Virus record (IMG/VR): IMGVR_UViG_3300028048_000120
Coordinates: 1 to 64,000 of that record
Length of the DNA stretch: 64,000 nucleotides
Reading direction: 5' to 3' (one strand)
Source of the DNA: a virus
Lineage: Duplodnaviria; Caudoviricetes
In this document: piece after piece, positions 5,506-64,000 of the stretch
Numbering within the stretch: position 1 is the stretch's first letter
Layout of the letters: the number at the start of each line of letters is the position of its first letter
The notes under the pieces: model-generated
The model's database searches: none
What the model was told of the DNA's origin: nothing
The model's input: only the letters and a program-made list of their open reading frames with translations
Position numbers and translations under genes: made by a program

Positions 5506-5970
5506 ATGGAAATAAAATACTATGTTGCGCTCTTTTTGATATTTATATTCGTCCTGTTTCCTCAGACTGGGTATGAGGTAAATGGACCGATAATAAACCA
5601 TTTTACGTGGATATTCTGTCATGCGAATATTTTCCATCTGTTTGGTAATATCGTATGTCTGCTGATGCTCAAGAGAAAATTATTTCTCATACCGGCATTC
5701 ATTATCTCTGTAGTGGCCTCTTTTGTTCCGGTATGGAGCATTGGTGGTTCATACGCCACAATGGGATTCTCAGGAGTGTTGTTTGCTATCATAGGTATTA
5801 AGTACGGGGATGTCGGTAAATTAAAACTATGTGCTAAGAATTGTCTGCCGTGGATAGTGATAAGCATATTTTTCCCTCACATGAACTGGTGTATTCACCT
5901 GTATTGTTTGGCGATAGGATATTTGTATGGAGCAATCAGAAGAAGATATATTACAAGAACTCGTAGCTGA
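5506..5970 (+). CDS. Rhomboid-family intramembrane serine protease
   Basis: Hydrophobic 154 aa with HANIFHLFGN (HxxxxHxxxN), GFSG (catalytic Ser, codon 5770) and IHLYCLAIG (catalytic His, codon 5896). Confidence 0.85.
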   Translation: MEIKYYVALFLIFIFVLFPQTGYEVNGPIINHFTWIFCHANIFHLFGNIVCLLMLKRKLFLIPAFIISVVASFVPVWSIGGSYATMGFSGVLFAIIGIKYGDVGKLKLCAKNCLPWIVISIFFPHMNWCIHLYCLAIGYLYGAIRRRYITRTRS

Positions 5971-22190: not shown

Positions 22191-23299
22191 GCATAGTAAC
22201 GAACAAATTCTTCATCAGCGCAGTAGATGACGGAAGTACGATGACGGCTACGTTATCCAAAAATATGGCGCTATCACAATCCTATTCGCCTAATAATGGT
22301 GGAGTATGGATGCCTAACTTCACGACTGATAGTCCTATACTGACTCCATACATTCTTAAAGGAGCTACAAGAGTGCAGCCAACGACGCAGAATTGGTATT
22401 GCAATGGAATTCTTTTGGAATTCGATACTACGACAAAGAAATGTACAACACCAAGATATGTAAACGTATTTCAACTTATCACTGATGCAAACGGATACGA
22501 ATGCCTTAAAATAATTGACAACCTTGCCAAACCGGGTAACCTCGATGCGGATAGCATCATGCTGAAAGGTACAGTAGAATTTAACGGAGCACAGGTAGAA
22601 TTTGCCGTGAGAGAGACTATCATGCTGACAGAAGTACAAGGTAACGGATATTCTTCGACTTTTACTTTTAGCCCAAGCAATACGATTACTGAGCGAGGCC
22701 AGACAATAACGATAACAGGAAAGCTATATGCCAACGGAGCTGAATATACAGGAAATTATGACTGCAATTGGTATCTCAATGATTCATCAACTGTTTCCGC
22801 AACAGGAAAGACACTCACTCTACAGGAAGCCAATGTGGTGGACTATGTCGTAATAAAATGTGAATTTATAATAGTAGGTACGGAGAGAACTAAGGTGTTG
22901 ACAAGCTATACCTCTGTAGATGATGCCAGCGATAATGACCAGATGCAAGTATCGTGCAATATCAGAGGGCAGGGAACTAACAATGGTAACTCGGCAACAT
23001 TGCACGCTGATCAGATAGCTGATATTAAGTTTTGGATGGCTTACGAGACGAACAAGGCTATAGGATCGAATAATAAATTCACGACGTATTCCGTGAAATT
23101 GTTCAACACAAAGATGGAGAGCAATATCGGTGCTCAGTCAATAAACACTATCGTGCTTGGTAGTGATGGATCTGATGGCTACAAGAATGTGACAACGACA
23201 GATAGTGATACAGGTGTACCTATAGGAAGTCTATCCGTATCTTATGATAACGTGATACAATGTGGAGGTAACATAAGTGGAATTTTAAAAGCACAATAA
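22187..23299 (+). CDS. Tail-associated Ig-like/beta-rich protein
   Basis: 370 aa, Thr/Asn/Val-rich. Confidence 0.5.
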   Translation: MSIVTNKFFISAVDDGSTMTATLSKNMALSQSYSPNNGGVWMPNFTTDSPILTPYILKGATRVQPTTQNWYCNGILLEFDTTTKKCTTPRYVNVFQLITDANGYECLKIIDNLAKPGNLDADSIMLKGTVEFNGAQVEFAVRETIMLTEVQGNGYSSTFTFSPSNTITERGQTITITGKLYANGAEYTGNYDCNWYLNDSSTVSATGKTLTLQEANVVDYVVIKCEFIIVGTERTKVLTSYTSVDDASDNDQMQVSCNIRGQGTNNGNSATLHADQIADIKFWMAYETNKAIGSNNKFTTYSVKLFNTKMESNIGAQSINTIVLGSDGSDGYKNVTTTDSDTGVPIGSLSVSYDNVIQCGGNISGILKAQ

Positions 23300-25485
23300 T
23301 GAAAAAGACGGTAACAGGCACTTTCAGCGTAACGGCAGTCAAAGACGGTGCCAAAGGAGACAAAGGAGACAAGGGTGATCAAGGTATCCGTGGCTTGCAG
23401 GGCTTGCAAGGCGAGAAAGGCGACCAAGGAATCCAAGGTCCGAAGGGCGAGAAAGGCGACACTGGTGCTGCTGGTAAGGATGGCGTGAGCACCTACTTCC
23501 ATATTGCATACGCTGACAATGCAACAGGCGGAGGGTTTTCTCAGAACCCAACCGGAAAGAATTATATCGGCACGTATGTAGACCATACGGCCACGGACTC
23601 CACGAACCCCTCTGCCTACAAATGGCAGCTTGTAAAAGGTGCGCAAGGCGAGAAGGGTGACAAGGGTATTCCCGGCACGAACGGAAACGACGGAAAGACT
23701 TCATATTTGCATATTGCCTATGCTAACTCGGCAGACGGAAAGACCGGGTTCGATGTTAGCAACAGCACGGGAAAACTCTATATTGGCCAGTATGTTGATT
23801 TCACAGAATCGGATTCCAACGACCCGACGAAATACTCTTGGACGAAGATAAAGGGAGACAAAGGAGACACTCCACCAATGTATTCTTTAGAAGCATCTTC
23901 GGGAAATAATGATATTGGAAATGATTCTCATATCGCATGTAACGGGCAAATATTACAAACGGCAATCGGACGTGGACATTGGTGTTATTTCATTACAGGC
24001 GGGACTAATCCTGTCGTAGCATTCTCAAGGAATTATGATACATGGGGAACGCCATCATTGGCAACGGACTTGGCAAATTTTCTAACAGGTGACGAAGCTG
24101 CTGCGTACGCTAATGGCGTATTGGTGATTGTCGGATATGACGCAATATCGGTAAACGATGATTTACGGCAAGCATTGAGGAGCTATGGCTATGGAGGGGA
24201 AAACCTACTGTATAATGTAGGGCCAACAAGAGAATCTTTTGTCTTCATCGGACAAAAAGGTATGACAGAAGGAACTGCGTATTACAAAATGTCGAAAAAC
24301 ACGAAAGTAAGTCTTACGGCATCTGTTTCAAATGGGGTTCTTATCGGTATGGGCCATAAAGGTGACAAGGGCGATACCGGTAGCACAGGGCCTATTATGT
24401 ACAATGCAGGAACATGGTCTAGCAATACGCAGTATACCAATAACGGGAAGGCTACCCCTATGGTGATGACAGAATCCTCTAGTGGTGGTATCACCTCACG
24501 TAATTACTGGTATCTTCCTAATGTCGGATCTAGTACCAATCAAGATCCAAGAAATGGAGCACCATGGGAAGAGGTAACAGGATATGCTGCACTCTTTGCA
24601 GAAATGGCCATCATTAACGGAGGTACTCTCAATGATGCAGTGTTCAAGGACGGATGGATGTTCAGCAAGGCAGGAAGATATATGAGTAACGAAAGTTACG
24701 TCTATACAACATATAACGATACCAACTGGACGAATTTTGACCCAACTGTATATAACAGCTCGGATGAGGCTTTATGGAGGCCACTTGTAGCTATAGACTT
24801 CAGAAATGGAAAGGCTTATTATACCGATTCAATTAATGCCACAGGAGGAGAGTTTAATGGTAATTTTTCCGCTTATAGAAATCGTATCATATTAGGGAAA
24901 ATCAAAGCCAACTCTTATGCTGACTCAGATTTGTATGGGATTCGTTTCAGTGACTCTCATGAAACAGAATGTGGATCTATTGATCAATTTACAGATTCTA
25001 ATGTATCACAATGCGCTTTAACTTTAACAGCAAACGATTATTCCTCATCAAGCCCTCAGGAAATTGGCAGACTTGATATAGTACCTACAACTGGTATAGC
25101 GCACACAGCATCAGGTTCGTTTTCTCTCTTGCAGAATTGGAGTATTGGAAAATATGGAGACTGTCTCGGATTAAAATCGAGTACACTTGTAATTCGTTCT
25201 TCAGATTCCTTCGATATAACATCAGGAGATAGTGGGACATTCTACGTTTTTGACAATGACCATGATTTAACCATTAATCTTCCAGAAGAATCACTTGACG
25301 GATTCACATTTGAGTTTAAGGCAATAAATCACCCAATAAATTTGAAAGTAAAAAATAATTCACATAGAATCGTTTTCCAAGACGCAGCACATAGCAATAG
25401 AACAGAACATAGAATAGAAGATTCTGTTCCACGTAAATATATCTACGTACGAGGTAGATGGTTTGAAATGAGTTATCATCATTAA
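23299..25485 (+). CDS. Tail fibre with collagen-like repeats, two HIAYA-type repeats and an ILEI/PANDER-like domain
   Basis: Gly-X-Y runs; YFHIAYADN...KWQLVKG and YLHIAYANS...SWTKIKG repeats; RGH...YDT...VIVGYD...RESFVFIGQKG pattern. Confidence 0.75.
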   Translation: MKKTVTGTFSVTAVKDGAKGDKGDKGDQGIRGLQGLQGEKGDQGIQGPKGEKGDTGAAGKDGVSTYFHIAYADNATGGGFSQNPTGKNYIGTYVDHTATDSTNPSAYKWQLVKGAQGEKGDKGIPGTNGNDGKTSYLHIAYANSADGKTGFDVSNSTGKLYIGQYVDFTESDSNDPTKYSWTKIKGDKGDTPPMYSLEASSGNNDIGNDSHIACNGQILQTAIGRGHWCYFITGGTNPVVAFSRNYDTWGTPSLATDLANFLTGDEAAAYANGVLVIVGYDAISVNDDLRQALRSYGYGGENLLYNVGPTRESFVFIGQKGMTEGTAYYKMSKNTKVSLTASVSNGVLIGMGHKGDKGDTGSTGPIMYNAGTWSSNTQYTNNGKATPMVMTESSSGGITSRNYWYLPNVGSSTNQDPRNGAPWEEVTGYAALFAEMAIINGGTLNDAVFKDGWMFSKAGRYMSNESYVYTTYNDTNWTNFDPTVYNSSDEALWRPLVAIDFRNGKAYYTDSINATGGEFNGNFSAYRNRIILGKIKANSYADSDLYGIRFSDSHETECGSIDQFTDSNVSQCALTLTANDYSSSSPQEIGRLDIVPTTGIAHTASGSFSLLQNWSIGKYGDCLGLKSSTLVIRSSDSFDITSGDSGTFYVFDNDHDLTINLPEESLDGFTFEFKAINHPINLKVKNNSHRIVFQDAAHSNRTEHRIEDSVPRKYIYVRGRWFEMSYHH

Positions 25486-25500
25486 TTAAAAAATACAATT

Positions 25501-26058
25501 ATGACAGCAACAACGAATTTAAGTGCAGCGCTCAAGACAATAGATGCTGCAGTAGAACATAACGAGACACCTTCAGACGGCTTATATGTAGAACTTCACA
25601 ATGCTGATGGCAGTATAGCCTGCAAGAGCACCTTGACGGAGTTTCTGGCCAGTGCTGCAAAAGCTATATTATCTACCAATACGCTGTCTACAGCAACAAA
25701 GATAGCTGCTGTAGACGGAAATACATTCGGTGGAATAGACGGAAATAATCTCGCAACACTTATGGCGGGGAAATGGAAATACCTTTATTTAAATAAAGGT
25801 CAAACGTATTATCCATTAGAAAAAGGAATTTATGTATTGCATGAATTATCAAATGGAGAATATCATATATTTATTGCATCAGGATGGCTTTTTGGATCAA
25901 ATAAGATATTTGGTTCTGGAGCATATATAAGATATAGTGAGCAAGATGACAACAATAACTATGGAATGGTCATCTTGCCAGGCACAAGTGAAGATAAACG
26001 ATTAAGAATATCTGCACATATGAACACCCAATTGCAATTCAAACTTTTGGCATTCTAG
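25501..26058 (+). CDS. Tail-tip protein with switchable C-terminus (orientation 1)
   Basis: Residues HNADG...LMAGK are encoded inside the 179-bp inverted repeat. Confidence 0.7.
   Translation: MTATTNLSAALKTIDAAVEHNETPSDGLYVELHNADGSIACKSTLTEFLASAAKAILSTNTLSTATKIAAVDGNTFGGIDGNNLATLMAGKWKYLYLNKGQTYYPLEKGIYVLHELSNGEYHIFIASGWLFGSNKIFGSGAYIRYSEQDDNNNYGMVILPGTSEDKRLRISAHMNTQLQFKLLAF
25596..25774 (+). repeat. Left arm of perfect 179-bp inverted repeat
   Basis: Exact reverse complement of 26321..26499, checked base by base. Confidence 0.95.
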
Positions 26059-26499
26059 ATGATTGATAATTGTCTACATAGAATTTCAGAATTTCTTTTG
26101 TTTTCTACATTAGCAACTCCTCTATTGATGGTAAGTGATATATACAACCCTTGGAGTTGCTCTTGTATGGAAGTACTAATTATAACATAAGAACTATAAA
26201 GTATTTCCACAATGGCATAATTTTGCCCCCCATCGAACAACATCATCAGTAGCCCATACGTAGCGTTTGGTATTACAGCAGATTCTTTTCCCGGTATTCT
26301 TACGAATGTAGAAGGTTGTAATTTCCCCGCCATAAGTGTTGCGAGATTATTTCCGTCTATTCCACCGAATGTATTTCCGTCTACAGCAGCTATCTTTGTT
26401 GCTGTAGACAGCGTATTGGTAGATAATATAGCTTTTGCAGCACTGGCCAGAAACTCCGTCAAGGTGCTCTTGCAGGCTATACTGCCATCAGCATTGTGA
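26055..26499 (-). other. Silent alternative C-terminal cassette for the tail-tip gene
   Basis: Shares the repeat-encoded segment then a different C-terminus (LQPSTFVRIPGK...LSII); the listed start is a TTG just outside the repeat with no N-terminal domain. Confidence 0.7.
26321..26499 (-). repeat. Right arm of perfect 179-bp inverted repeat
   Basis: Exact reverse complement of 25596..25774. Confidence 0.95.
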
Positions 26500-26569
26500 G
26501 AAATAAGGGCCAATTATTAAAAATATTTAAAATTACCAATTAAAGAGAACAATTTACTGATATGTGATA

Positions 26570-26577
26570 TATATTTG
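26570..26577 (+). promoter_or_regulatory. -7 box (TATATTTG) for membrane protein-HTH pair
   Basis: TAnnTTTG match. Confidence 0.5.
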
Positions 26578-26621
26578 CGTATATAATAATGTGTAACTTA
26601 ATAATCAAAAAATATTTTATA

Positions 26622-27041
26622 ATGACAAGATTAAGAGATCATGAACCTACGCTCCTACAGAAAGAACGTATGAAACTGGAAACACGCTATCTTACTTTTT
26701 CGATTTCAATTTTTCACGCCATCTATGTACTCAACTTGGTATCTAACGGACTACCTCCAAGATGCCCCGATTTTGGTTCTATACTTGTGTATATGGCATT
26801 ACTTCTCATCAACATACATTTATATGATGAGAGTAAGTGCTATTACTATTGTTACTGGCATAGACACCCAATATTGTTCTCTATATATTATGAGATAACG
26901 AGGATATTATTCTCGCTTGGAATCATTAAATGGGATGTTGTAACATGGAATAGTATAGACGTTATAATGTTAGCAGCAATATACGTAACATGGGTAGTTG
27001 GATATATGGCTCATAGCCACTTAATAATCAGGATAAGATGA
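26622..27041 (+). CDS. Multi-pass membrane protein with CxxHR motif (likely start 26622)
   Basis: YYYCYWHRH motif and hydrophobic segments; counterpart of 60951..61343. Confidence 0.65.
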   Translation: MTRLRDHEPTLLQKERMKLETRYLTFSISIFHAIYVLNLVSNGLPPRCPDFGSILVYMALLLINIHLYDESKCYYYCYWHRHPILFSIYYEITRILFSLGIIKWDVVTWNSIDVIMLAAIYVTWVVGYMAHSHLIIRIR

Positions 27042-27343
27042 GTAGGAAGAGCATAGTTGTGAAGATGTTGAGAACCCTTGCTGACAATATAGAGAATGGC
27101 GAACAAAGTAAATATAATTCAAATCTTACGGATGACGAGATAGATATTCTACTGAATGATTATGCGAGAATGAATGACGAGAAATTAAACAAAGTACATG
27201 CGTGTAGGTTTTTGAACATGAGTCGTGCAACATTTGACAGACGTATAGCAGAGGGAAAGATACCGAGAGGTAAGAAAGAAGCAGGATGGAAGGAACTGTA
27301 CTGGTCTAAGCGAGAACTTGAGCAACTTATTACTCACGATTAA
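27038..27343 (+). CDS. AlpA/excisionase-like winged-HTH protein
   Basis: ACRFLNMSRATFDRRIAEGKIPRG..GWKELYW; homolog of 60597..60890. Confidence 0.75.
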   Translation: MSRKSIVVKMLRTLADNIENGEQSKYNSNLTDDEIDILLNDYARMNDEKLNKVHACRFLNMSRATFDRRIAEGKIPRGKKEAGWKELYWSKRELEQLITHD

Positions 27344-27365
27344 TTCTATAGATACCATATATTTC

Positions 27366-27402
27366 AACGGTTTGAGCATTGTTTCCGCTCGGGCCGTTTT
27401 TT
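27366..27402 (+). terminator. Intrinsic terminator
   Basis: aacggtttgagc/gctcgggccgtt stem plus T tract. Confidence 0.7.
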
Positions 27403-27405
27403 ATT

Positions 27406-27427
27406 TACTTTTGGCATGTAACGTTAC
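27406..27427 (+). promoter_or_regulatory. -7 box TACTTTTG plus palindrome gtaacgttac
   Basis: TAnnTTTG at 27406-27413; perfect 10-bp palindrome at 27418-27427. Confidence 0.6.
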
Positions 27428-27430
27428 GAC

Positions 27431-28111
27431 ATGTTTAACCTTTTAAAAACCAAAAGTATGGACGGAAACAACCTTTCTTATGCTGATTTTGCTGCCATGG
27501 CCAATAATGGTGCCAATGGTCAGTGGAATAATCCATTCATCTACTTGTTGTGGATGATGTTCTTTGGTGGTGGTGGCTTCGGGTTCAGAGGTAACGGACC
27601 AGGCGTTGGACCTCAGGTGCAGAATCTGCAAGATCTTATCCAAGACAACCACAACAGTGATTTGACGATGCAGGCTATTAACGGCAACACCGCTGCAATA
27701 ACCCAGCTAGCCAACCTTCTGAACACTAGCACGGATAACATCACGGCAGCTATAAACGCTATGTCACAGAACATGCAGAATAATTGCTGCCAAGTGAAGA
27801 GTGCTATCTTGGAGCAGGGTTATCAAAATCAACTAGCGAACTGTCAGCAGACAAACACCATCTTGCAGCAGGCGCAAGCATTACAGAATTCTATCACTAA
27901 CGGGTTCACACAGATAGGATTCCAGTTGGAGCGCAATGCATGTGATGTAAAGCAGACTTCTACAGAAAACACACAGAGAATTATTGACACCCTAAACAGC
28001 CACTGGACATCAGAGCAACAGGGTATTATCAACTCTCTGAACGCAAAGGTAGCGAGCATGGAGCAGACACAAGCTATTATCTCTGCGCTTAAGCCTGCAG
28101 CAACCACTTAA
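27431..28111 (+). CDS. Conserved phage protein of unknown function (aromatic TM + Gly-rich N-terminus, Gln/Asn-rich coiled coil, CC motif)
   Basis: PFIYLLWMMFFGGGGFG, QAING, NCCQ, NQLANCQQTN; homolog of 58689..59615. Confidence 0.75.
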   Translation: MFNLLKTKSMDGNNLSYADFAAMANNGANGQWNNPFIYLLWMMFFGGGGFGFRGNGPGVGPQVQNLQDLIQDNHNSDLTMQAINGNTAAITQLANLLNTSTDNITAAINAMSQNMQNNCCQVKSAILEQGYQNQLANCQQTNTILQQAQALQNSITNGFTQIGFQLERNACDVKQTSTENTQRIIDTLNSHWTSEQQGIINSLNAKVASMEQTQAIISALKPAATT

Positions 28112-28227
28112 CAAGAGTATTTTATTTCCATCTCGATTGGCTGCACATAAGGAGTTATATCCAATATCATATGGATATTGATACTATCTTTGTGCAGCCA
28201 TGTAAGTATAATCAACATATAAGAACT

Positions 28228-28473
28228 ATGGCAAGTATAACGGACACAATAGAGAAAATTATGATAGAGCATAAGGAGAACAACAATGATAAGTTACAGG
28301 AACAGTTGATGAGGCTTAAAGAGGAACTCCATGAGACCGTGCAATGCCTTGACAACTGTCTTCAAGCTCTACGCCGAATACGCTTGCGCATTAAAGATAA
28401 AGGCTATGAAGAAGGAATGGAACGAGATAAGGGAGAGAATCCTGAAGGATCAGAGCGAAGAAGATTTGCGTAA
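28228..28473 (+). CDS. Small coiled-coil protein (likely start 28228)
   Basis: -7 box TATCTTTG at 28185-28192; positional counterpart of 57590..57790. Confidence 0.55.
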   Translation: MASITDTIEKIMIEHKENNNDKLQEQLMRLKEELHETVQCLDNCLQALRRIRLRIKDKGYEEGMERDKGENPEGSERRRFA

Positions 28474-28894
28474 GATGCTGGGTGCCGTCATGGACGTCAT
28501 GGAGGCACATTGGACGGAAGACAAGCAATTCGACTTCATGAAAAGAGTCCATTACAGAATGTATGGAGGACACTACGACGAATTCCTAGCCATGCAACAG
28601 GTAAGGCACATGTATTGGGAAGACGATAACAGTAACATTCATTACGTTACTCCACTACCTCTAGAACAGGTAAGAACGATATACCAGCGAGTATACAATA
28701 GGTTGAAATATAAGACCTACAATATGTATGACTTCTATGTGGAACTGCACAGAATCAAGTCTGACAGATATCCTAAGGCTACGGACATCACGGACGAGAT
28801 GATTCAGGACACCATCGTATCGCTCAATGATCCTGACAACCCATTTGGGCTGGAAAGAGTTTGGGGATATTTTAACTCTGAAATTAAGAAATAG
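28406..28894 (+). CDS. Conserved hypothetical protein (likely start 28406)
   Basis: YGGHYD..MY..YDFYV..SD..NDPD motifs shared with 57121..57537. Confidence 0.65.
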   Translation: MKKEWNEIRERILKDQSEEDLRKMLGAVMDVMEAHWTEDKQFDFMKRVHYRMYGGHYDEFLAMQQVRHMYWEDDNSNIHYVTPLPLEQVRTIYQRVYNRLKYKTYNMYDFYVELHRIKSDRYPKATDITDEMIQDTIVSLNDPDNPFGLERVWGYFNSEIKK

Positions 28895-28896
28895 AT

Positions 28897-29370
28897 ATGA
28901 ATGACATTAAGAGTCTCTTGGTATGGGGTGGAGGAGCATTACTTACAATGCTCTCACCCATTAAGGATTTTATGCTGGCCGTGATGATCCTTTTTATTTT
29001 AGATTTCACGTTCGGTGTAATAGCCGACAAGTTCAATGGCGAGAAATGGGAATGGGACAAAGCAAAGAACTTTTTCAAGAATGTGTTCTACTGCTGCGTT
29101 ATCATCGTATCCCTGTTCGTGATAGGCTATTTCCTGCACGAGGCAGTTGCAGCGGAATATGCGGTTAAGACATTCTGCCTAGCTGCATTCGTCATTTTCT
29201 TTACGAAGATTGTCAAGAACTGGAGGAAATGCCTAGTACCGGGTACGGAATGGTATAAGCTAGCCGACTTCCTGTATTATCTATTGAGCTTCAGTATTGT
29301 AGACCGACTAAAGGTATACAAGGATTACCAGAAGTTCAAGGAAGATAACGGAAAGGAGGAAAAGAAATGA
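28897..29370 (+). CDS. Holin
   Basis: Several TM segments, basic C-terminus, overlaps lysozyme start. Confidence 0.7.
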   Translation: MNDIKSLLVWGGGALLTMLSPIKDFMLAVMILFILDFTFGVIADKFNGEKWEWDKAKNFFKNVFYCCVIIVSLFVIGYFLHEAVAAEYAVKTFCLAAFVIFFTKIVKNWRKCLVPGTEWYKLADFLYYLLSFSIVDRLKVYKDYQKFKEDNGKEEKK

Positions 29371-29798
29371 ACCCAAGCAAGACCCTTATAGATCACATAA
29401 AACAGGCGGAAGGTTTCAGTGAGAAAGCATACTGGGACCAAGACGGAGGTGTGTGGACGATTGGATACGGGCATACTAGATCTGTGAAAAGAGGAGATGT
29501 AGTATCGAAGTCGGAAGCGGAGAGGCTCATCGTATCTGACTTAAAGAATGTAACAGCGTACCTCAGCACCATAAAAGAGATAAATACCCAAGGCAAGTTT
29601 GATGCCTGTGCAGATTTCTGTTTTAATATCGGCACGGGAGCCTTTAAATCATCTACACTACTGAAGTTGATAAAAACCGGTGCTCCTGACAAGGATATAC
29701 AAGCACAATTCCGCAGATGGGTGTATTCAGGAGGAAAGAAGTTACCAGGATTAGTAACAAGAAGAGGATGGGAGGCAAAGAGATGGGCAGAACGATGA
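29367..29798 (+). CDS. Endolysin, GH24 phage lysozyme
   Basis: EGFSEKAYWD..GVWTIGYGHT; FDACADFCFNIG; LPGLVTRR. Confidence 0.92.
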   Translation: MNPSKTLIDHIKQAEGFSEKAYWDQDGGVWTIGYGHTRSVKRGDVVSKSEAERLIVSDLKNVTAYLSTIKEINTQGKFDACADFCFNIGTGAFKSSTLLKLIKTGAPDKDIQAQFRRWVYSGGKKLPGLVTRRGWEAKRWAER

Positions 29799-30262
29799 TT
29801 GCAATAATTGTAACTGTAATGTTGTGCGGTTGCAAGACCTACGTACCTGTTGAGAGAGTGCATAACACAACAGATACACTATATATAGAAAAGCACGACA
29901 CATTGCGTGTTGAGGCTAAGCATACCGAAATGAGCGACAAAGTTGCCGAACGGGAACATATACGCAGAGACAGTGTATATATGGTAGTTGATGAGGCTGG
30001 AAATGTAAAGAAGACATACGAATACCACTATCTTGGAGACAAGCAACTGGAAAGACAAATCCTTGCGCTTAGAGATAGCGTGAATTACTATAAGATGCTG
30101 AGTGAATATCTTGCGGAGAAGAATACAGATCACCAGCAAGACCGAGTGGTGGAAAAGTTATCTATATGGAGTATGTTTAAGCCATGGATGCTTATTCCAC
30201 TTTTAATTACATTTATAGCAGCAGTATACCTATTAATAAGGAATTTCATAATACATAAATAG
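29795..30262 (+). CDS. Spanin, probably unimolecular (likely start 29795)
   Basis: MIAIIVTVMLCGC lipobox and C-terminal TM helix, directly after the endolysin. Confidence 0.65.
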   Translation: MIAIIVTVMLCGCKTYVPVERVHNTTDTLYIEKHDTLRVEAKHTEMSDKVAEREHIRRDSVYMVVDEAGNVKKTYEYHYLGDKQLERQILALRDSVNYYKMLSEYLAEKNTDHQQDRVVEKLSIWSMFKPWMLIPLLITFIAAVYLLIRNFIIHK

Positions 30263-35818: not shown

Positions 35819-36137
35819 ATTTGACAAGAACGGGGAATGTTTGAATCCTGATATTATATCATCCGAGCTACAGCAGGAAGATGGAAGTAGAGTTACATGG
35901 GAAATAGAAGTTGCTGAGGCTCCTAATGGATGGGTAGCAGGAATGAAGTGGAGGAATAAGGGAGAATTTGATGTTTGGAGATATCCATGCTCTCTGAAAA
36001 ATGATAAATATCCATCTCGCCGTAAGGCTGTGATAGTGGCAGCAAGGAAACTCCTTAAAATAAAATATCTCCCTGATCATGAATGGCTAAAGAAATTAAT
36101 ATTCAAAGAGAAACAATTGAATCTGTTCGATGACTGA
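35805..36137 (+). CDS. Hypothetical protein ending in QLNLFDD (sliding-clamp-binding-like motif)
   Basis: C-terminal QLNLF matches the QL(S/D)LF beta-clamp consensus. Confidence 0.5.
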   Translation: MKKYEFDKNGECLNPDIISSELQQEDGSRVTWEIEVAEAPNGWVAGMKWRNKGEFDVWRYPCSLKNDKYPSRRKAVIVAARKLLKIKYLPDHEWLKKLIFKEKQLNLFDD

Positions 36138-36264
36138 CCGGAAGAAGCACATAGAATGTAGATATTCCGTGAATTGTATTAACGGATTATATTGTAGGAG
36201 GCTTAGCAAATATATTGAATATGGTGATATAGATTGTGCTGAGGCTGATAAAGAGAAAAAGTAA
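36130..36264 (+). CDS. Small Cys-rich protein (below ORF track cutoff)
   Basis: MTDRKKHIECRYSVNCINGLYCRRLSKYIEYGDIDCAEADKEKK. Confidence 0.4.
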   Translation: MTDRKKHIECRYSVNCINGLYCRRLSKYIEYGDIDCAEADKEKK

Positions 36265-36427
36265 AATAATATTAAAGAGAATCGAATATGGAATATTTTA
36301 TTTTAGGTGCTTTGCTGCTCCTTGATTTGGTCAGCATAGTTCTATTAATTAAGAGTATGTTTAACGGTTTTAACTATTAAAAAAGAAAATTGCAGAACTA
36401 TATAAGGGAAGAAAGGAGGGAAAGGAA

Positions 36428-36832
36428 ATGAATAGAATCCTAGAAAAGATTAAAAAGAGGATAGACGAAATACAGAGTGATTGCCTTGATGATCACTACA
36501 ATTTCAAGAATTCTCATAATGAAGGTGTTTTTGAAGGATTATCAAAGTTGGAGTCCTATATTGAAAGTCTTGAGACAGATATTGATGTGAAAGAATGGAA
36601 AGATGCACAAGGTAAGGACCTACCAGATATTAATAGAGAAGTAATCGCCTTGGAACAAGATAAAAACGGCTATATGAAGGTAGTATTTGCTCATAGGCCA
36701 AATCCTGATGGATGGAATGGAAAGAATATTGATACAGGTAAGGTTACACGATATTATCCTAAGACTTATGGCAAGGGTGGTTGGAATATACCTAACCTCA
36801 AGTATTGGTTAGATTATCCTCTACCAGAGTAA
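36428..36832 (+). CDS. Hypothetical protein
   Basis: 134 aa; WKDAQGKDLP..REVIAL start of a Bacteroidales phage small domain. Confidence 0.5.
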   Translation: MNRILEKIKKRIDEIQSDCLDDHYNFKNSHNEGVFEGLSKLESYIESLETDIDVKEWKDAQGKDLPDINREVIALEQDKNGYMKVVFAHRPNPDGWNGKNIDTGKVTRYYPKTYGKGGWNIPNLKYWLDYPLPE

Positions 36833-45680: not shown

Positions 45681-48600
45681 ATGAGTGGAGAAGTTTGCCT
45701 TATTATGACTCCTAAATTGGAGGAATTATACAACAAATTACAGAGTAAATACCCTAAAGAATGTGAAGCATCCTTGGTAAATAAAAATGTTTTTCTAGGT
45801 TGGGTAGAATTATATCAAAAAGATTTTAATAAAACTCCTGACTTTACACCAGATTTAAAATCACTTGTTCCTTATGTTGAAAATCTTAGAAAGAGAGAAG
45901 GAAGATCTTTCCTTAATAAAGAGATAGCTCAAAAAAGTGAAGCTAATTCTACATTGGTACAATTTATAAAGGATATTGAAACTTTAGCTGGTTATTATGA
46001 AGGAGGAGGTAGAGTTCTTTCTGATGATGTACCTAATTTCCCTAATGAATTAGATGATAAATTAAATGACTATTTCATGGAGGGTAAGGAACTTTCTTTA
46101 GATGACTATAGAAAGCTTTGGAAAGTTCTAGAATTTAAAGATGGTAAGGTATATGCAAGAAAACCAACAACAACTGAAGATAATAAGCAAGATATTGTTA
46201 CTCAGCTTATAGATCAATTAAAGGCTTCAGGTATTACTGTTCTTGGTAAAGCTGATATGGAAAAATATCTAACAGAGAAAGGTAAACTAGACCCTGTTTA
46301 CACTTTGCAAGCCATTAAGGAGAATAAAGAAATGCAAGATATTAAAGCCAAAGCTCTTGCTGATGGTACTTTCATGAAAGCTCCTAATGGTAAACCTACT
46401 AATCTTACTGAAAGACAGTGGCTTCAAGTTAGAACTAAAGCTTTTAAAGAATGGTTTGGTGATTGGGAGAATGACCCTACTAATGCTTCTAAAGTAGTAG
46501 ATGAGAATGGTGAACCTAAAGTAATGTTTAGGACTGATGGAGCTAACAAGACTGTTATGGGTAGGGGTGACGAAGGATCTTTTTTTGCTACTGACAATCT
46601 TTCTGTTGCTGGTTCTTATGCTTCAAAAGAAGCAAGTTTATATAAAGGGTTTGTTAGTTTAAAGAATCCATATATTATTAAGGGAGAATCACATGGTTTT
46701 TTCTTTGAATATAAAGGCAAAGAAACTACAGTACAAGAAGCACAATCATCTTTAATAGAAGAAGGATATGATGGTGTTTATTTTGAGCGTACTTGGGATG
46801 TAGGAGATAGGGTAAATGTAGGTAAGGATTATTGGGCAAACAATGTTGCGATGTTTAATCCTAACCAATTTAAATCAGCTACTGATAACAATGGCGAGTT
46901 CTCTACTGAGAATGATGATATTCAGATGTTTATTGGCAAGAAAGCGTATGGCAACCCTCTTACAAGGGACTTGTATTATGCAGAAAATCAATATAAGAAA
47001 ACAATACAGCAAATAAATAGTTTGGAAAGAGAATTAAATAGTAATATCTATGAAGATTCAATTTCAACTAAAAATGGCAGTATTAAGATAGTACAAAATG
47101 AGAGATCAAAAGATTCTTCTGAATATGATAGAGATACTATTACTTTAAGTTCTGGTAGATCTATTTTTGGTAGGGTAAGTATATCTATTCAAGCTAATGT
47201 TAGCAAAAATCTGATAGGTGGTTCTATCCTTTTCCCAAGTATAGAAATTAATAATCCTAACAATAATTATCTCCGTTTAGAAAACCCAATCAGAAGTAAT
47301 CATGCAAGCCTCTTAAAAACAGTATTACAATACTTTATTGACAACGGGCACAATAAACCTCATACACAATGGACTCTATATGCTGGAGGCAAATATGGTA
47401 AAGAGTATAATTATAAAGGAAGAATTAAAAACCTAAGTAAAGTCTTAGGTGTAGATGTATCTCCATATTTCCAGTTTGAAATGAGAGATGGTAAAGAGGA
47501 GAATACAGTAGAAGAGAGAGTTATTGTTGATGCTAAAGGTCTAATAGAGGCACTTCCAACATTAGTTGATACAAAAGCTTTTTCTAAACTTACTGACGTT
47601 TTGCAGTCCAATGAGCAAAACAATGTTGACTATATTCTCAAGAGGAAAAATCTTACTCAACAGCTACATGAGTTAAATAAACAACGTGATGTAGAATGGA
47701 AGAAAGTTCAAGACATTAAAAAGAAGATTAAAAATGAATTAGATGCATCATCTGACCTTCCATTTTTTATAACTCCTGAAGGTGAAGTCTATGGCTTTGT
47801 AGATGAGAAAGGTAATATATATCTTGATGAAACTGTAATCTCTCCAGAACATCCTATTCATGAATACACTCATCTTTGGGATACAATTCTTGCTAAAAAG
47901 AATCCTGCATTATGGAATAGAGGAAAGCAGTTGCTTAAAGATAAGAATCTTAAACTTAAAGGACATGAAAAGAGTATATGGCAAGAAATAGAAGAAGATC
48001 CTAACTATGGTCTAAAATGGGATAAAACAAAAGCACATTATGAAGACTATGTAGCTTCTGAAGTTCATGCTAGACTTACAGGAAAGAAAGGTCTTCAGCT
48101 TTTAGATGAAATAGCTAAGCAGAAAGGTAGTAAAAATATTATTAGTAAACTTAAACAGTGGATTTTGGATGTTTATAAAGAGTTAAAGGCTACTTTCTCT
48201 AAATGGACTCCAGAAGAGCTTGATAAGCTTACTATAAAGGACTTTACTTACATGACTCTTAGAGATTTTACATCTGGTATGGATTTATCTAATGTTCCTA
48301 CAATATTAAAAGAAACTTCTGATCCTAATATTAGTAAGGAACAAATAAATGAAGCTAGAAATGCACTATATCATATCATACAAACTTCTAAATTTAGAAT
48401 AGATCAAATACAAGATAAAATTAAATGGAACAAAGCAACAAATGAAGATATTCAAAATTTGAATAAATACAAAGTAAAACTCAAAGAAGATACAGAACTT
48501 CTTGCTGGCTTAGATACAGGAAAATCTGAAGTATATATAAATGAATATAATACTCCTATGGTAAGATGGGTGAATAAAAAAGAAAAACCATCATCACCAG

Positions 48601-56710: not shown

Positions 56711-56739
56711 AAAAAGGAGGGTTGAAAAATCCTCCTTTT
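56711..56739. terminator. Bidirectional terminator
   Basis: aaaaggagg/cctcctttt stem between convergent genes. Confidence 0.75.
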
Positions 56740-57139
56740 ATTTTTTAATATTCTTAAATATAGAATACATTCTACTTACTATATACCCTATAGTATAAGC
56801 TGCATTTTCTCCTATATCATCTACTGAATATGCTCTAAGTAAAGCTTGTTTTACATGTTCTGCTTCATGTACTATAGAATTGATATAATCTATATCATTA
56901 CTATGATTACCAAATAATACTATACTTACTCTCTCTTCAATGCTGTTACAAGTTGCAGCTTTAACCTTTCCACTTTTTATTTTATTGAAAATATCATCTA
57001 TAGATTCTTTTGAAAAATTTAGTAAACGTAATTCAAAATAAATATCATCAAAGAAGCTATAATCTATATTATAATAAACTATAATTTTCCAATATTTTTC
57101 TATTTTGAACATCTGTTTAATCATAGCATTTCTTCCCAA
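56738..57139 (-). CDS. Small HExxH metallopeptidase-like protein
   Basis: IVHEAEHVKQ..ENAAY (DNA 56855-56869). Confidence 0.6.
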   Translation of the reverse strand: MGRNAMIKQMFKIEKYWKIIVYYNIDYSFFDDIYFELRLLNFSKESIDDIFNKIKSGKVKAATCNSIEERVSIVLFGNHSNDIDYINSIVHEAEHVKQALLRAYSVDDIGENAAYTIGYIVSRMYSIFKNIKK

Positions 57140-57537
57140 TCTATAGGATTATTCATAAATATAGTATCAGCATAGAATCTATTAAATATAAATCCTTCAG
57201 TAGCATCAGGGTCATCTATTAAATCTTTTATATACATAGCCAAGTATTTATCTGAGGGTAAGGACTTACCTAAGAAATCAGCTTTAGCCATATTAGCTAC
57301 ATATACATAATCATATAGTTTATTTCTATCTAAAACTATATTATTATTACGTAATAGTGAATCAACCTGTTCTTTAGTATATGGTACTATGTACTTTTTT
57401 ATACCATTTTCCATAGTATACATTCTACTAGCAGCTTCTTCACAAAGCTTCCTATTAAAATGACAACCATAGTTATTTATATAACTCTTCATTCCTAATG
57501 GAATTTCATCATAACTTCCTGTATTCTTTTGATACAT
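57121..57537 (-). CDS. Conserved hypothetical protein, homolog of 28406..28894
   Basis: YGCHFN..RMY..YDYVYVANMAKADF..DDPD. Confidence 0.7.
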   Translation of the reverse strand: MYQKNTGSYDEIPLGMKSYINNYGCHFNRKLCEEAASRMYTMENGIKKYIVPYTKEQVDSLLRNNNIVLDRNKLYDYVYVANMAKADFLGKSLPSDKYLAMYIKDLIDDPDATEGFIFNRFYADTIFMNNPIDWEEML

Positions 57538-57794: not shown

Positions 57795-58283
57795 TTAAAT
57801 TGTTTTATTATTACTTTTTAAAAGAGCTAAAGCTTCCTTTAATTGAGCTTGCATACTCTCAACTTGCCCTTTTAATTCCTTTACTGCATTATTATCTACC
57901 ATGCTGGGATTTAATTGCTCTAAAACTTTTTTATATTGCTCAATAAGAATTTCATGTTTATCTTTAGAGTTTACTATATCAATACTTTTTTGAAGTTGTC
58001 CATTAATATAATTTACTAAAGATTCCTTATTATCAGCAATAACAAAAGTATCAGGACCAAAATCAGCTATAGTGTTATTACTAGGTACTTGCTTAAATTC
58101 TCTCTTCTCTCCATTTATTACAGCTATTATATCTATAACTGTTTCTGGAATTTGACCAAAAGTATTCTGCATATACCTAGATCTAGGTAAGGATATTGAG
58201 TCTATAGGTGCAGTGAAAAACTTAATATCACCTTTAGTATCTAGACCATATAATACACTTCCTTTACTTAAATTTGAAAACAT
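57795..58283 (-). CDS. Hypothetical protein with C-terminal coiled coil
   Basis: 162 aa within the conserved module. Confidence 0.6.
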   Translation of the reverse strand: MFSNLSKGSVLYGLDTKGDIKFFTAPIDSISLPRSRYMQNTFGQIPETVIDIIAVINGEKREFKQVPSNNTIADFGPDTFVIADNKESLVNYINGQLQKSIDIVNSKDKHEILIEQYKKVLEQLNPSMVDNNAVKELKGQVESMQAQLKEALALLKSNNKTI

Positions 58284-58320: not shown

Positions 58321-58674
58321 TTATGCTGTAGTAGGATTAAGCAACTGAAGAATGTTACTATTCTTATCATAATAAATAAGATAGATTCCAGTTCCTGACA
58401 TTTCTGAAGCAGTAGCTGCTATTCCACCAACCACAGTAAGAGGTTGAGTAAAATCACTAGATTCAAACAAAATAGGTAAGGTACCAGCAGTACTAGGAAT
58501 TTCGGTATTTAGTCTAAATATCATTATACCATTAGTACTTAGAAATCTAAATGCCCTTCTAGGAATACCTATTACTACATTTTCAGTAGTAACATTTACA
58601 CAGGTACTCTCAATCATAGGTATACCATTCCTATTGGCAAAGTTAAAAGGATAATTAGTAGTTGCTCCAAACAT
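58321..58674 (-). CDS. Hypothetical beta-rich protein
   Basis: 117 aa directly downstream of the Gly-rich gene. Confidence 0.6.
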   Translation of the reverse strand: MFGATTNYPFNFANRNGIPMIESTCVNVTTENVVIGIPRRAFRFLSTNGIMIFRLNTEIPSTAGTLPILFESSDFTQPLTVVGGIAATASEMSGTGIYLIYYDKNSNILQLLNPTTA

Positions 58675-58688
58675 AGGTATATATTTTA

Positions 58689-59615
58689 TTAGTTAAAGAA
58701 ATTGGTTTGAGGATAACTATACCCTAAATAAGGAGTAGCATTTGCAGCTATAATATTAGGGTACTGTACAGGTACTGTGTTAGGCTGTCTTGCAGCAATG
58801 CTATTGATTTTTTCATTTAGAGATTCAAAAGCCTTATTGAAAGCTTCTGTCTGTTTATCATTACTAATCTGACCTCTAAGCTGAGTAATAATGTCACCTT
58901 GAGTATTTATTTTATTCTGTAATTCCCTCTCTTTAAGGTCACAGAACTCTTTAGTTATAAGGGTATTCTGACCAGCAATAGCATTGAGAATACTATTAGT
59001 ATTTCTATCAGCCTGAGAACCTAATTGATTAGTCTGTTGACATACAGCTAGTTTATCAGCAGCTTCTGCCTGAGAAGTTTGTAGTGTACTAGCAGCAAAA
59101 TTAGATGCCATCTGACTCTGTAATGCATTAGTCTGATTACATATAGCCAATCTATTTTCACAACAACACTGAGCTATTTGAGAACCCAGAGAAGCATTAC
59201 CAGCTTGTACAGCATTAATAGTCTGAAGACCTGACATGCCTACTTGATTACCTACCTGATTAATAGAGTTCTGTAAAGTCATGATACCATTCTTCACTGC
59301 TTCTACAGAGGTATTGGTAATAGATGCCAATTGAGCAGCAGCATCAGCCCTACCATTAATAGCTTGCAATAGTAAATCCCTACCCTCAGAGTTTGAAATC
59401 TGATTAGCTAAATAGCCAGTGCCATTATTGCCTCCAAAGCCGTTATTACCCCAGCCATTGTTACCCCAAATCATCCAAAGGAAAATAATCCATATCCAAT
59501 TACCATTACCACCAAAACCCCCGTTATTGTTAAGGGCAAGTAATAAGTTAGGATCAATGCCAGTAGCTTTAGATACTGCATCAGGGAAAACATAAACACT
59601 TTCATCTTGTGCCAT
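58689..59615 (-). CDS. Conserved Gly-rich/CC protein, homolog of 27431..28111
   Basis: WIWIIFLWMIWGNNGWG, LLQAING, QCCCENRLAICNQTN. Confidence 0.75.
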   Translation of the reverse strand: MAQDESVYVFPDAVSKATGIDPNLLLALNNNGGFGGNGNWIWIIFLWMIWGNNGWGNNGFGGNNGTGYLANQISNSEGRDLLLQAINGRADAAAQLASITNTSVEAVKNGIMTLQNSINQVGNQVGMSGLQTINAVQAGNASLGSQIAQCCCENRLAICNQTNALQSQMASNFAASTLQTSQAEAADKLAVCQQTNQLGSQADRNTNSILNAIAGQNTLITKEFCDLKERELQNKINTQGDIITQLRGQISNDKQTEAFNKAFESLNEKINSIAARQPNTVPVQYPNIIAANATPYLGYSYPQTNFFN

Positions 59616-59814: not shown

Positions 59815-60594
59815 TTAGTAATCCATTTCAATATCAATATTATAAGTACCAGCAGAATAAGTATTTAAAGATTCTAGTACTGTATAATCACCTACAACTG
59901 TTCTGTTTATAGGTATTTCATAACCATTCATGTCTACTCTTTGGAAATGACTCATTACAGAGTTAGGAATAACTACATATATATGTTCATCATTTCCCAC
60001 AACTACATCAAAATTAGACCTTGTAACTTTATAAAATTCTTTTCTATGCTCTTCATTAATAACATCTGTGTATGCAATACCTGCTCCTATATAAAAAGGT
60101 ACCTTAACAACACATTGTAATTCCCTAATAATAGTTCTACCCATCAATACAGCTTCTGCTTTAATAGTAACAGTACTATCAGTAGTTATTGTTGTAGTAG
60201 CAGTTCTAATATTTCCACCAATATATTTAAGTTCATCATTTACATAAAACTTAATACTTGTAAAAGGTTCAAAAGCATTAATACAACTTGCAGTACATAT
60301 ACATCTTACATTTCCGTCAGCAATAACAAATGAAGGATCTATAGTAAATGTATAATCCATGTACCCTTTACCTGTAATATATGACAAATCATCAGCTATA
60401 GTATATATTATATCAATTAGTTCTTGATTTAATTTAGGAAGAGTTATTGATTTATCCTGTATATGTTCTGTAGTAATTGAGTTATCTGCTATGTGTTCTG
60501 AATGTATAGCATGCTCTTTTATTTTAAATTTGAATGCTTTATTTGGAGTCTTATTTAATTCAGACTTTCCTATTTCTTTATTTGTACCCGTCAT
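59815..60594 (-). CDS. Structural/fibre-like protein
   Basis: EHIADNSITTEHIQDKSITLPKL short repeats; beta-rich C-terminus. Confidence 0.5.
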   Translation of the reverse strand: MTGTNKEIGKSELNKTPNKAFKFKIKEHAIHSEHIADNSITTEHIQDKSITLPKLNQELIDIIYTIADDLSYITGKGYMDYTFTIDPSFVIADGNVRCICTASCINAFEPFTSIKFYVNDELKYIGGNIRTATTTITTDSTVTIKAEAVLMGRTIIRELQCVVKVPFYIGAGIAYTDVINEEHRKEFYKVTRSNFDVVVGNDEHIYVVIPNSVMSHFQRVDMNGYEIPINRTVVGDYTVLESLNTYSAGTYNIDIEMDY

Positions 60595-60596
60595 TG

Positions 60597-60890
60597 TTAT
60601 TTCTTTTTAGTAGTTATATAATTAGATAGCTCATCTTTATACCAAACAAGTTCTTTGAATCCTACTCTTTTCCTTCCTTTAGGTAATTTATTTAGATTAA
60701 TCATACTATCAAATTTACTTCTTGACATATTGAGATAATTACAGGCTGTCTCTTTACTCATAACATGATGGGTAAGCAGTGACATTATATCCATTGCTTC
60801 AGATTCTGATAACTCAGAGTTTCCTGAATCTAATTTATTAGCAATTTCTCTTAATAATTTAGCTACTAATTTAATCAATGATGTCTTCAT
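60597..60890 (-). CDS. AlpA/excisionase-like winged-HTH protein
   Basis: ACNYLNMSRSKFD..KLPKG..GFKELVW; homolog of 27038..27343. Confidence 0.75.
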   Translation of the reverse strand: MKTSLIKLVAKLLREIANKLDSGNSELSESEAMDIMSLLTHHVMSKETACNYLNMSRSKFDSMINLNKLPKGRKRVGFKELVWYKDELSNYITTKKK

Positions 60891-60950: not shown

Positions 60951-61343
60951 TTATTTGTTTATTCTTAATATGTTTTTATACTTGTTACTCCTATATAATA
61001 TAAGAAATATAAATAGTCCTGTTATTATCAAGTAAAACATTAAAAGTTTTTTATCTGATAAAGGTATTCCAATATAATAATCATATATATTAAGTATCCA
61101 GTTAAGAGATACATAATGTAGAAATAATCTATGATAACTACAAAATTTAAAAGCATAACTAGATATATACAAGAACATCATAGGCAATAAAGAAACTCCT
61201 CCTAAATAAGAGAGTATAAAAGTATCTACATTTAAGTAGGAAAGTAATATGTTTAACAGCACAATGAGGGATAATACCATTGGAATTACTTTAAGTACCC
61301 AGAGTTGTATTTTATGAATATTTCTTATAGGTAGTGTTTCCAT
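60951..61343 (-). CDS. Multi-pass membrane protein with CxxHR motif
   Basis: FKFCSYHRL motif; counterpart of 26622..27041. Confidence 0.65.
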   Translation of the reverse strand: METLPIRNIHKIQLWVLKVIPMVLSLIVLLNILLSYLNVDTFILSYLGGVSLLPMMFLYISSYAFKFCSYHRLFLHYVSLNWILNIYDYYIGIPLSDKKLLMFYLIITGLFIFLILYRSNKYKNILRINK

Positions 61344-63988: not shown

Positions 63989-64000
63989 ATTTTTAATACT

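Follow-up and report, generated by a model that had tools for sequence, protein, structure and literature searches.

Introduction

Lysis inhibition in phage T4 involves the holin T, the antiholin RI, which has a releasable membrane anchor, and the cytoplasmic protein RIII. In the PBSX lysis cluster of Bacillus subtilis, XhlA is a membrane-associated coiled coil of fewer than 100 amino acids, encoded beside the holin and carrying its membrane segment at the C-terminal end. Here we describe a cassette of up to eight genes (M, H, G, A, B, C, D and E) that occurs twice in the first 64 kb (the window) of one 83,743-bp phage contig, IMG/VR record IMGVR_UViG_3300028048_000120. The cassette is an old late-gene set that moves horizontally among gut phages, with two sub-units that tend to travel together. 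We tentatively read it as a late, membrane-associated accessory controller of lysis that may act at the cytoplasmic membrane, a reading we consider possible rather than probable.

The likeness to T4 RI and RIII would be one of logic and not of sequence. On both sides there are accessory, dispensable late genes with one membrane-tethered and one cytoplasmic partner (G and D, as predicted here). The hydrophobic segment of G is unusually rich in glycine, like releasable signal-anchor segments, and D stands directly before the holin gene in several phages. However, we found no family match to these proteins in Pfam or PHROGs, and the model of D had no match above Z 3.5 in the PDB. Further, G has 200-340 amino acids and a long helix with a cysteine cluster, the cassette has up to six more genes, including a zincin, and it is also present in phages of Gram-positive hosts.

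G may be compared with XhlA as well, since it combines a membrane segment with a coiled coil, lies beside holin or endolysin genes and would have an accessory role; it is, however, longer, its segment is not C-terminal and it does not match the Pfam XhlA family. With two-component spanins of the Rz type G shares an N-terminal membrane segment, a long helix with conserved cysteine and a position in the lysis cassette. In contrast to them, no lipoprotein partner adjoins G, as C1, D1, A2 and B2 showed no signal peptide or lipobox on reading. Moreover, copy 1 already has a unimolecular-spanin-like gene after the endolysin, and G is also found in phages of Firmicutes and Actinobacteria type, whose hosts lack an outer membrane. 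The crAss relatives carry a separate gene for a 'lysis regulatory protein', which we take to be LysB-like. The catalogue entries that D, G and H match (PF25223, PHROG 16490 and PHROG 668) are without function.

Results

Two related copies of the cassette

The five open reading frames (ORFs) of copy 1 and the corresponding ones of copy 2 were all present where a sequence-only reading of the window had placed them. Copy 1 is a reduced form, M-H-G-C-D, ahead of a lysis operon with holin, endolysin and spanin-like genes. Its genes are as follows (positions in the window):

M1, 26589..27041, + strand: ORF of a small membrane protein with four transmembrane (TM) segments and a C..WHR motif; 8 homologues
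H1, 27038..27343, + strand: protein of about 100 amino acids with a C-terminal helix-turn-helix (HTH); matches phrog_668
G1, 27431..28111, + strand: Gly-rich hydrophobic segment, then a Q/N-rich long helix with a CC cluster; phrog_16490 at 3e-6, profile positions 16-214 of 286
C1, 28228..28473, + strand: small coiled-coil protein with a charged tail; ORF opens at 28171
D1, 28475..28894, + strand: DUF7841 protein; ORF opens at 28331; PF25223 at 3.8e-9, 37.2 bits against a gathering cut-off of 25.2

M1 probably starts at 26622, because its homologues begin at that methionine, and the start of H1 overlaps the M1 stop by 4 nt. The probable start of C1 is 28228 and that of D1 is 28475, right behind the C1 stop. 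Copy 2 lies on the opposite strand:

M2, 60951..61343, - strand: 4-TM membrane protein with a C.YHR motif
H2, 60597..60890, - strand: HTH protein; matches phrog_668
T2, 59815..60594, - strand: 259 amino acids, tail-fibre-like insert between H2 and G2, outside the shared core; phrog_892 (tail fibre) at 2.2e-6, in a short N-terminal stretch only
G2, 58689..59615, - strand: Gly-rich membrane segment, long helix with a CCC motif, GY-rich tail; phrog_16490 at 5.1e-33, profile positions 7-265 of 286
A2, 58321..58674, - strand: beta-rich protein of 117 amino acids; phrog_31654 at 3.7e-14
B2, 57795..58283, - strand: 162 amino acids, coiled coil at the end; phrog_28898 at 1e-17
C2, 57590..57790, - strand: acidic protein of 66 amino acids with an Arg/Tyr-rich tail; its family occurs in 54 loci
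D2, 57121..57537, - strand: DUF7841 protein; PF25223 at 9.5e-28, 97.2 bits against the cut-off of 25.2
E2, 56738..57139, - strand: small HExxH...E metallopeptidase-like protein; matches phrog_1365

Relative to copy 1, copy 2 thus has a surplus of T (fibre-like), A, B and the zincin E. We compared the shared genes pairwise. H1 and H2 were 39% identical (BLASTP 1e-20), and G1 and G2 (1e-7) as well as D1 and D2 (1e-3) were also alike, both members of each of the latter pairs matching the same family (phrog_16490, and PF25223 above its gathering cut-off, respectively). For M1 and M2 BLASTP was not significant (E 11). Alignment of their family profiles (8 and 26 relatives) with hhalign gave a probability of 89.9% and E 1.7e-6 over 70 columns, which take in the C..(W/Y)HR motif. 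The coiled-coil proteins C1 and C2 were weakly alike (BLASTP 0.02; hhalign probability 9%; hmmsearch 13 bits). Profile homology is therefore supported for four of the five pairs (M, H, G and D). The claim that both copies share one gene order and one set of motifs stood for these four and for the order, as M-H-G-C-D is colinear in the two copies, while the coiled-coil pair remains just weakly alike. We observed no nucleotide similarity between the copies (best blastn E 0.38), and therefore conclude that they diverged long ago. Their GC contents were 0.40 (copy 1) and 0.29 (copy 2).

The two copies sit in two different phages, as had been proposed. GC content is about 0.41 to the left of 36 kb and about 0.32 to the right (step at about 36100-36430), and the gene content changes there too. 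The left part of the contig has a portal gene, tail genes, a collagen-like fibre, the lysis operon, a CI-type repressor and a DnaD-type loader, and the right part is crAss-like, with an ORF of 3,672 amino acids. Since an M1 relative, 99% identical, was found on a separate 33,984-bp contig, the left part also exists alone. Two phage genomes, one temperate-type and one crAss-like, have thus probably been joined in the 83.7-kb contig.

A terminator and an own promoter had also been claimed for copy 1, and neither was confirmed. A consensus scan gave nothing above shuffled expectation, and by eye we saw only a Bacteroides-type -7 box, TACTTTTG, at 27406-27413. In copy 2, a clear hairpin with a T-run lies at about 59792-59761, after T2 and upstream of G2. 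Fibre-like genes related to T2 were observed upstream of M in several relatives.

Distribution and gene order among phages

We fetched 4 IMG/VR loci related to G1 and 80 related to G2, together with annotated phage records, and read them with iterated profiles built for each cassette gene. The D alignment of divergent proteins was too variable for the locus scan, and single-protein scans contributed few loci. Searches of IMG/VR and GTDB genomes gave no further loci of the M1 family.

Across 87 IMG/VR loci, the crAss-like ones had the order M-H-G-A-B-C-D-E nearly without exception. About 9 loci had M-H behind E and not ahead of G; therefore the set consists of two sub-blocks. M and H were always paired in public phage records, and in IAS virus and cr128_1 they were present without G-E. 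Bacteroidales phages outside the crAss-like group had a shorter core, G-(B)-D, seen as G-B-D in locus L004, Dulem virus 42 and Parabacteroides phage PD691P3. The Bacteroides fragilis phage BF503P2 had D alone, and G was not found. A few genes upstream of D, this phage has an 80-amino-acid ORF rich in Cys, Gly and Arg (L089 3173-3415; CCGCG...GCGCGG), whose composition recalls the tails of G and the RGG tails described below.

For all eight families (M, H, G, A, B, C, D and E) we obtained zero matches in crAss001. Phage cr116_1, of the same subfamily, has the set between lysis genes and capsid genes. Because the whole set is absent from one and present in the other, the cassette, judged from its gene content, is accessory; it is also mobile, and its parts assort partly but not freely. 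The proposed portability was thus borne out, as many phage lineages carry the cassette, at varying places in their genomes. Independent assortment of the genes was seen in part: M-H is separable from G-E, yet the order is largely kept.

G reaches further than its partners. A profile search of 1.84 billion representatives (E <= 1e-3) gave 2,829 clusters at 50% identity, with homologues in Clostridium perfringens and Butyrivibrio phages. On temperate-type Firmicutes contigs G lies between an endolysin and a serine recombinase without A-E, and a small upstream family (F73) recurs. Its neighbours there (families of 159, 73, 168 and 184 amino acids) had no detectable relation to A-E and no Pfam match, and for these reasons a BclA/exosporium reading was not adopted.

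In the G loci L005-L007, C3_41T2LP and L063, a different-looking HTH protein is encoded by the small gene ahead of G, and its N-terminal part can be aligned with H (probability 71%, E 3.7e-5). Since an HTH gene recurs before G, even in another HTH form, a dedicated DNA-binding partner stays plausible.

Fused ORFs were present in public data. D was joined to an acidic/RGG stretch and an A-like domain in P0028 and to the whole of G in P0075 and P0097; about 180 amino acids of NEMRGG-like repeats preceded D in P0104, and D had a C-like tail in L071:6320-6823. These forms hint that D, the RGG tail, A and G belong together, though some may be artefacts of assembly or gene calling.

TAG recoding

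In 26 related loci the cassette ORFs were broken, and reading through TAG restored full-length G, A, B, D, E and H. Reading through TGA or TAA failed to restore them. The loci with TAG as a sense codon, which are related to each other, were:

L012, L024-L031, L035-L039, L042, L045, L046, L048
L050, L058, L061, L064-L066, L069, L071, L001

The number of in-frame TAG codons per gene was 0-11 for G, 1-6 for B, 1-4 for H, 0-4 for A, 0-3 for E, 0-2 for D and 0 for M; G carried at least one in 24 of the 26 loci. The share of TAG among Gln codons was highest in H (53%), amounted to 34-44% in A, B, D and E, and dropped to 13% in G, which is very rich in Gln. The corresponding value for 53 long flanking ORFs (late genes) was 29%. 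As the loci share ancestry, the Fisher p-values for these comparisons overstate significance. In these relatives the ORFs of the cassette, terminase and portal are whole only with TAG read-through, and in L026 the cassette follows the recoded genes of the large terminase and portal. In crAss-like phages recoded stops mark late structural and lysis genes, and replication genes keep the standard code (bioRxiv 10.1101/2021.08.26.457843; PMC10136315). Because TAG levels were comparable to those of the flanking late genes, and in view of this published pattern, the cassette, H included, belongs to the late regime. The candidate role of H as an early regulator was dropped, as H is so heavily recoded that it could not be made ahead of the switch to the late code.

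Position relative to lysis genes

Copy 1 is followed on the same strand by these genes:

28897..29370, + strand: holin-like multi-TM protein, directly behind D1; matches phrog_15037; weak Phage_holin_4_1 match below the cut-off (E 0.0014)
29367..29798, + strand: endolysin of lysozyme type; phrog_7 at 2.8e-46
29783..30262, + strand: unimolecular-spanin-like protein, read from its N-terminal signal, lipobox-like Cys and C-terminal TM segment; no family match in the PHROGs scan

In copy 1, L004 (G-B-D-endolysin), PD691P3, Dulem virus 42 and BF503P2, the holin or endolysin genes begin immediately behind D; in BF503P2 the genes behind D encode a multi-TM protein and, after it, an M15-type peptidase. 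Downstream of the cassette in cr273_1 come the endolysin gene and next the terminase gene. The other sub-block, M-H, lies directly behind the genes of the holin and L,D-carboxypeptidase in IAS virus, cr128_1 and cr116_1. A 'VOG3488' protein comes after M-H in IAS virus (L101, about 5700-6800) and cr128_1 (L102, 5622-6737). G follows shortly after the endolysin on Firmicutes- and Actinobacteria-type contigs and in Butyrivibrio phage Ceridwen. The link to lysis, named as one candidate by the sequence-only reading, is thus strengthened, since both sub-blocks repeatedly adjoin holin or endolysin genes in several lineages.

Features of the cassette proteins

G1 and G2 belong to PHROG 16490, the match covering most of the profile, and no Pfam family covers them. 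In an alignment of 20 sequences (Bacteroidales and Firmicutes-type) each G had one membrane-favourable 19-mer at the same position, with -4 to -16 kcal/mol on the octanol scale (-10.2 kcal/mol for that of G1). The 19-mer is flanked by or mixed with glycine, and a Q/N-rich helical region with a nearly invariant triple cysteine comes next. The CCC motif was present in 111 of 121 representatives of the G family; copy 1 has CC. The tails of G differ: they are GY-rich in crAss-like phages and CGC-rich in Firmicutes phages, and the copy 1 group has none.

D1 and D2 are members of PF25223 (DUF7841), and their fold matches in BFVD were DUF7841 or unnamed phage proteins. The model of D2 (predicted local distance difference test score, pLDDT, 88.8) is a small helical domain with one hairpin. 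Asp residues are invariant in D, and no Cys is. The model of D had no counterpart in the PDB (Foldseek E > 0.4, VIA Z <= 3.5). CE-clan proteases gave the top VIA rows for D; this candidate was rejected, as the matches were too weak and the protein lacks an invariant Cys.

M2 was modelled as a plain bundle of four membrane helices (pLDDT 91.7). In the alignment of its 26 relatives P21, C68 and D88 were invariant and H71 and R72 nearly so. Fold searches with the M model returned generic four-helix membrane bundles only (Z < 8, Foldseek E > 2). H likely carries an HTH; membership in HTH_17 (PF12728) is not established, as H1 (19.3 bits) and H2 (14.9 bits) stayed below the gathering cut-off of 27 bits. 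In E, the residues H91, E92, H95 and E111 were invariant in 26 sequences, the pattern of HExxH with a downstream Glu that would be expected of a gluzincin-type enzyme. No signal peptide or hydrophobic segment was recognisable in the soluble partners of the window copies.

When the alignments of D, E and A were used as profiles against PDB sequences, no meaningful match emerged, and a protein atlas returned unnamed viral clusters only. Scans of ten cassette proteins against PADLOC and NCBIfam gave noise-level matches only; therefore nothing in them supports a known defence system.

Other features of the window

A perfect 179-nt inverted repeat (25596-25774 and 26321-26499) lies just downstream of the collagen-like fibre gene (23299-25485). 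Its arms are inside two opposed ORFs, 25501-26058 (+) and 26055-26513 (-), whose roughly 60 N-terminal residues are identical and which diverge afterwards. The region looks like an invertible segment that would exchange the C-terminal tip of a protein associated with the tail fibre. Copy 2 is flanked by ORFs 45681-56699 (+, 3,672 amino acids) and 61838-64000 (-, at least 716 amino acids). Both contain HExxH (HEYTH and HEAFH), and they may have embedded metallopeptidase domains.

Discussion

We consider lysis control the most economical mechanism because the cassette is accessory and in the late regime, its lead protein is inserted in the membrane, its partners are soluble and both sub-blocks repeatedly border lysis cassettes in several phage groups and host phyla. 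In this tentative model G would be a membrane-tethered element, held by its one Gly-rich hydrophobic segment and continued by the long Q/N-rich helix with the conserved Cys cluster. D, whose gene immediately precedes that of the holin, would act with G from the cytoplasm, and H would be the partner that binds DNA. They may affect the triggering of the holin at the end of infection, and thus the timing of lysis. We infer physical contacts among G, D, C and A, regulation by H and the topology of G. The role of M as a sensor that regulates the G operon together with H, suggested by the sequence-only reading, lost ground, since M-H is separable, H is recoded as a late gene and M is a plain bundle that returned no informative structural match.

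Several observations weigh against lysis control. No cassette protein resembles a known holin, antiholin or spanin in the Pfam, PHROGs, PADLOC and NCBIfam scans. Copy 2 and its closest relatives have no lysis gene near the cassette, which lies there between the giant ORF and the 716-amino-acid protein. In C. perfringens phage XP41-N3 G has early-type genes as neighbours, with about 4 kb between it and the holin; in locus L078 it is between a minor capsid gene and a scaffold gene; C3_41T2LP is a further exception to the lysis-adjacent placement. Unrelated cargo commonly inserts at the end of late operons, so adjacency by itself is weak evidence. The loci share ancestry, and their counts are therefore not independent. 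The charges flanking the G segment are few (excess of K/R on the C side in 44 sequences, on the N side in 18, equal in 59) and do not settle its topology, and the fused D-G forms argue for the opposite orientation.

Other explanations account for part of the same data. The cassette could be an optional accessory of the virion or its assembly (decoration, fibre-associated or ejected), with G as a structural coiled coil and A as a beta-rich binding domain. We regard this as unlikely. It would fit the location of the cassette in L026, in the recoded late block immediately behind the terminase and portal genes, the position between the genes of minor capsid protein 2 and the scaffold in L078, the fibre-like gene between H2 and G2, and the public names of G, 'spike protein/glycoprotein' and 'outer capsid protein/viral fiber'. 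These names, however, are based on coiled-coil likeness, and no structural family was matched in Pfam or PHROGs; G has a membrane-favourable segment and lies outside the structural genes in C. perfringens phages, and absence from crAss001 shows that the set is not a core part of the virion. The membrane anchor of G would equally suit a protein that, with or without partners, blocks superinfection or re-adsorption of progeny and is carried as cargo at the end of the late operon. The dispensability of the cassette and the temperate-type Firmicutes contigs, where G without A-E occupies a classic cargo site, are consistent with such exclusion. Yet virulent crAss-like phages write the cassette in the late TAG code, with five soluble partners, one of them an intact zincin, and a role tied to one receptor is hard to square with the strong conservation of the CCC helix in different host phyla; we find this explanation quite improbable.

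The nearly invariant CCC motif can also be read in another way, together with the RGG or Arg/Tyr-rich tails in C, the D of L071, P0028 and P0104 and the GY- or CGC-rich tails of G. A body that assembles itself inside the cell or at the membrane, through Cys clusters and low-complexity Gly/Tyr/Arg regions, would have nothing to do with lysis, and the fused forms would show that its parts belong together. We think this a poor prospect, as its basis is composition alone and as the copy 1 group keeps its lysis-operon position although it lacks the G tail, A, B and E. Finally, H might be a small terminase subunit and the remainder unrelated neighbouring cargo. The H homologue is labelled 'terminase small subunit' in five public records (IAS virus, cr116_1, cr111_1, cr106_1 and cr112_1) and 'hypothetical protein' in cr128_1; M is unannotated in the records of IAS virus and cr116_1. 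However, H is missing in crAss001, invariably comes with M, lies after lysis genes or beside G rather than beside the large terminase gene, and scores below the Pfam cut-off for HTH_17. As far as the gene content tells, the label fails two defining features, presence throughout the group and pairing with the large terminase gene, and we judge it very improbable.

A bolder form of the lysis-control reading is a long shot in our view. In it G, D and their partners would be an undescribed late membrane device, spanning host phyla and unlike known antiholins, which sets or senses the moment of lysis. Equally doubtful are its details, that the Gly-rich segment of G may be releasable, that G would assemble with the DUF7841 protein, the RGG-tailed peptide and the zincin, and that M would act on the Cys cluster.

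In summary, few unexplained gene sets of gut phages are shared as widely as this cassette. It spans crAss-like, other Bacteroidales and Firmicutes phages, and there are cultured carriers, such as Bacteroides phage C3_41T2LP (on B. uniformis MB20-41), PD691P3, BF503P2, Ceridwen and XP41-N3. If it does time lysis, this would bear on burst size and on the persistence of crAss-like phages in the gut, as well as on stop-codon recoding as a means of holding back late functions. It would also give names to families that are misleadingly annotated as 'spike glycoprotein', 'viral fiber' or 'terminase small subunit'.

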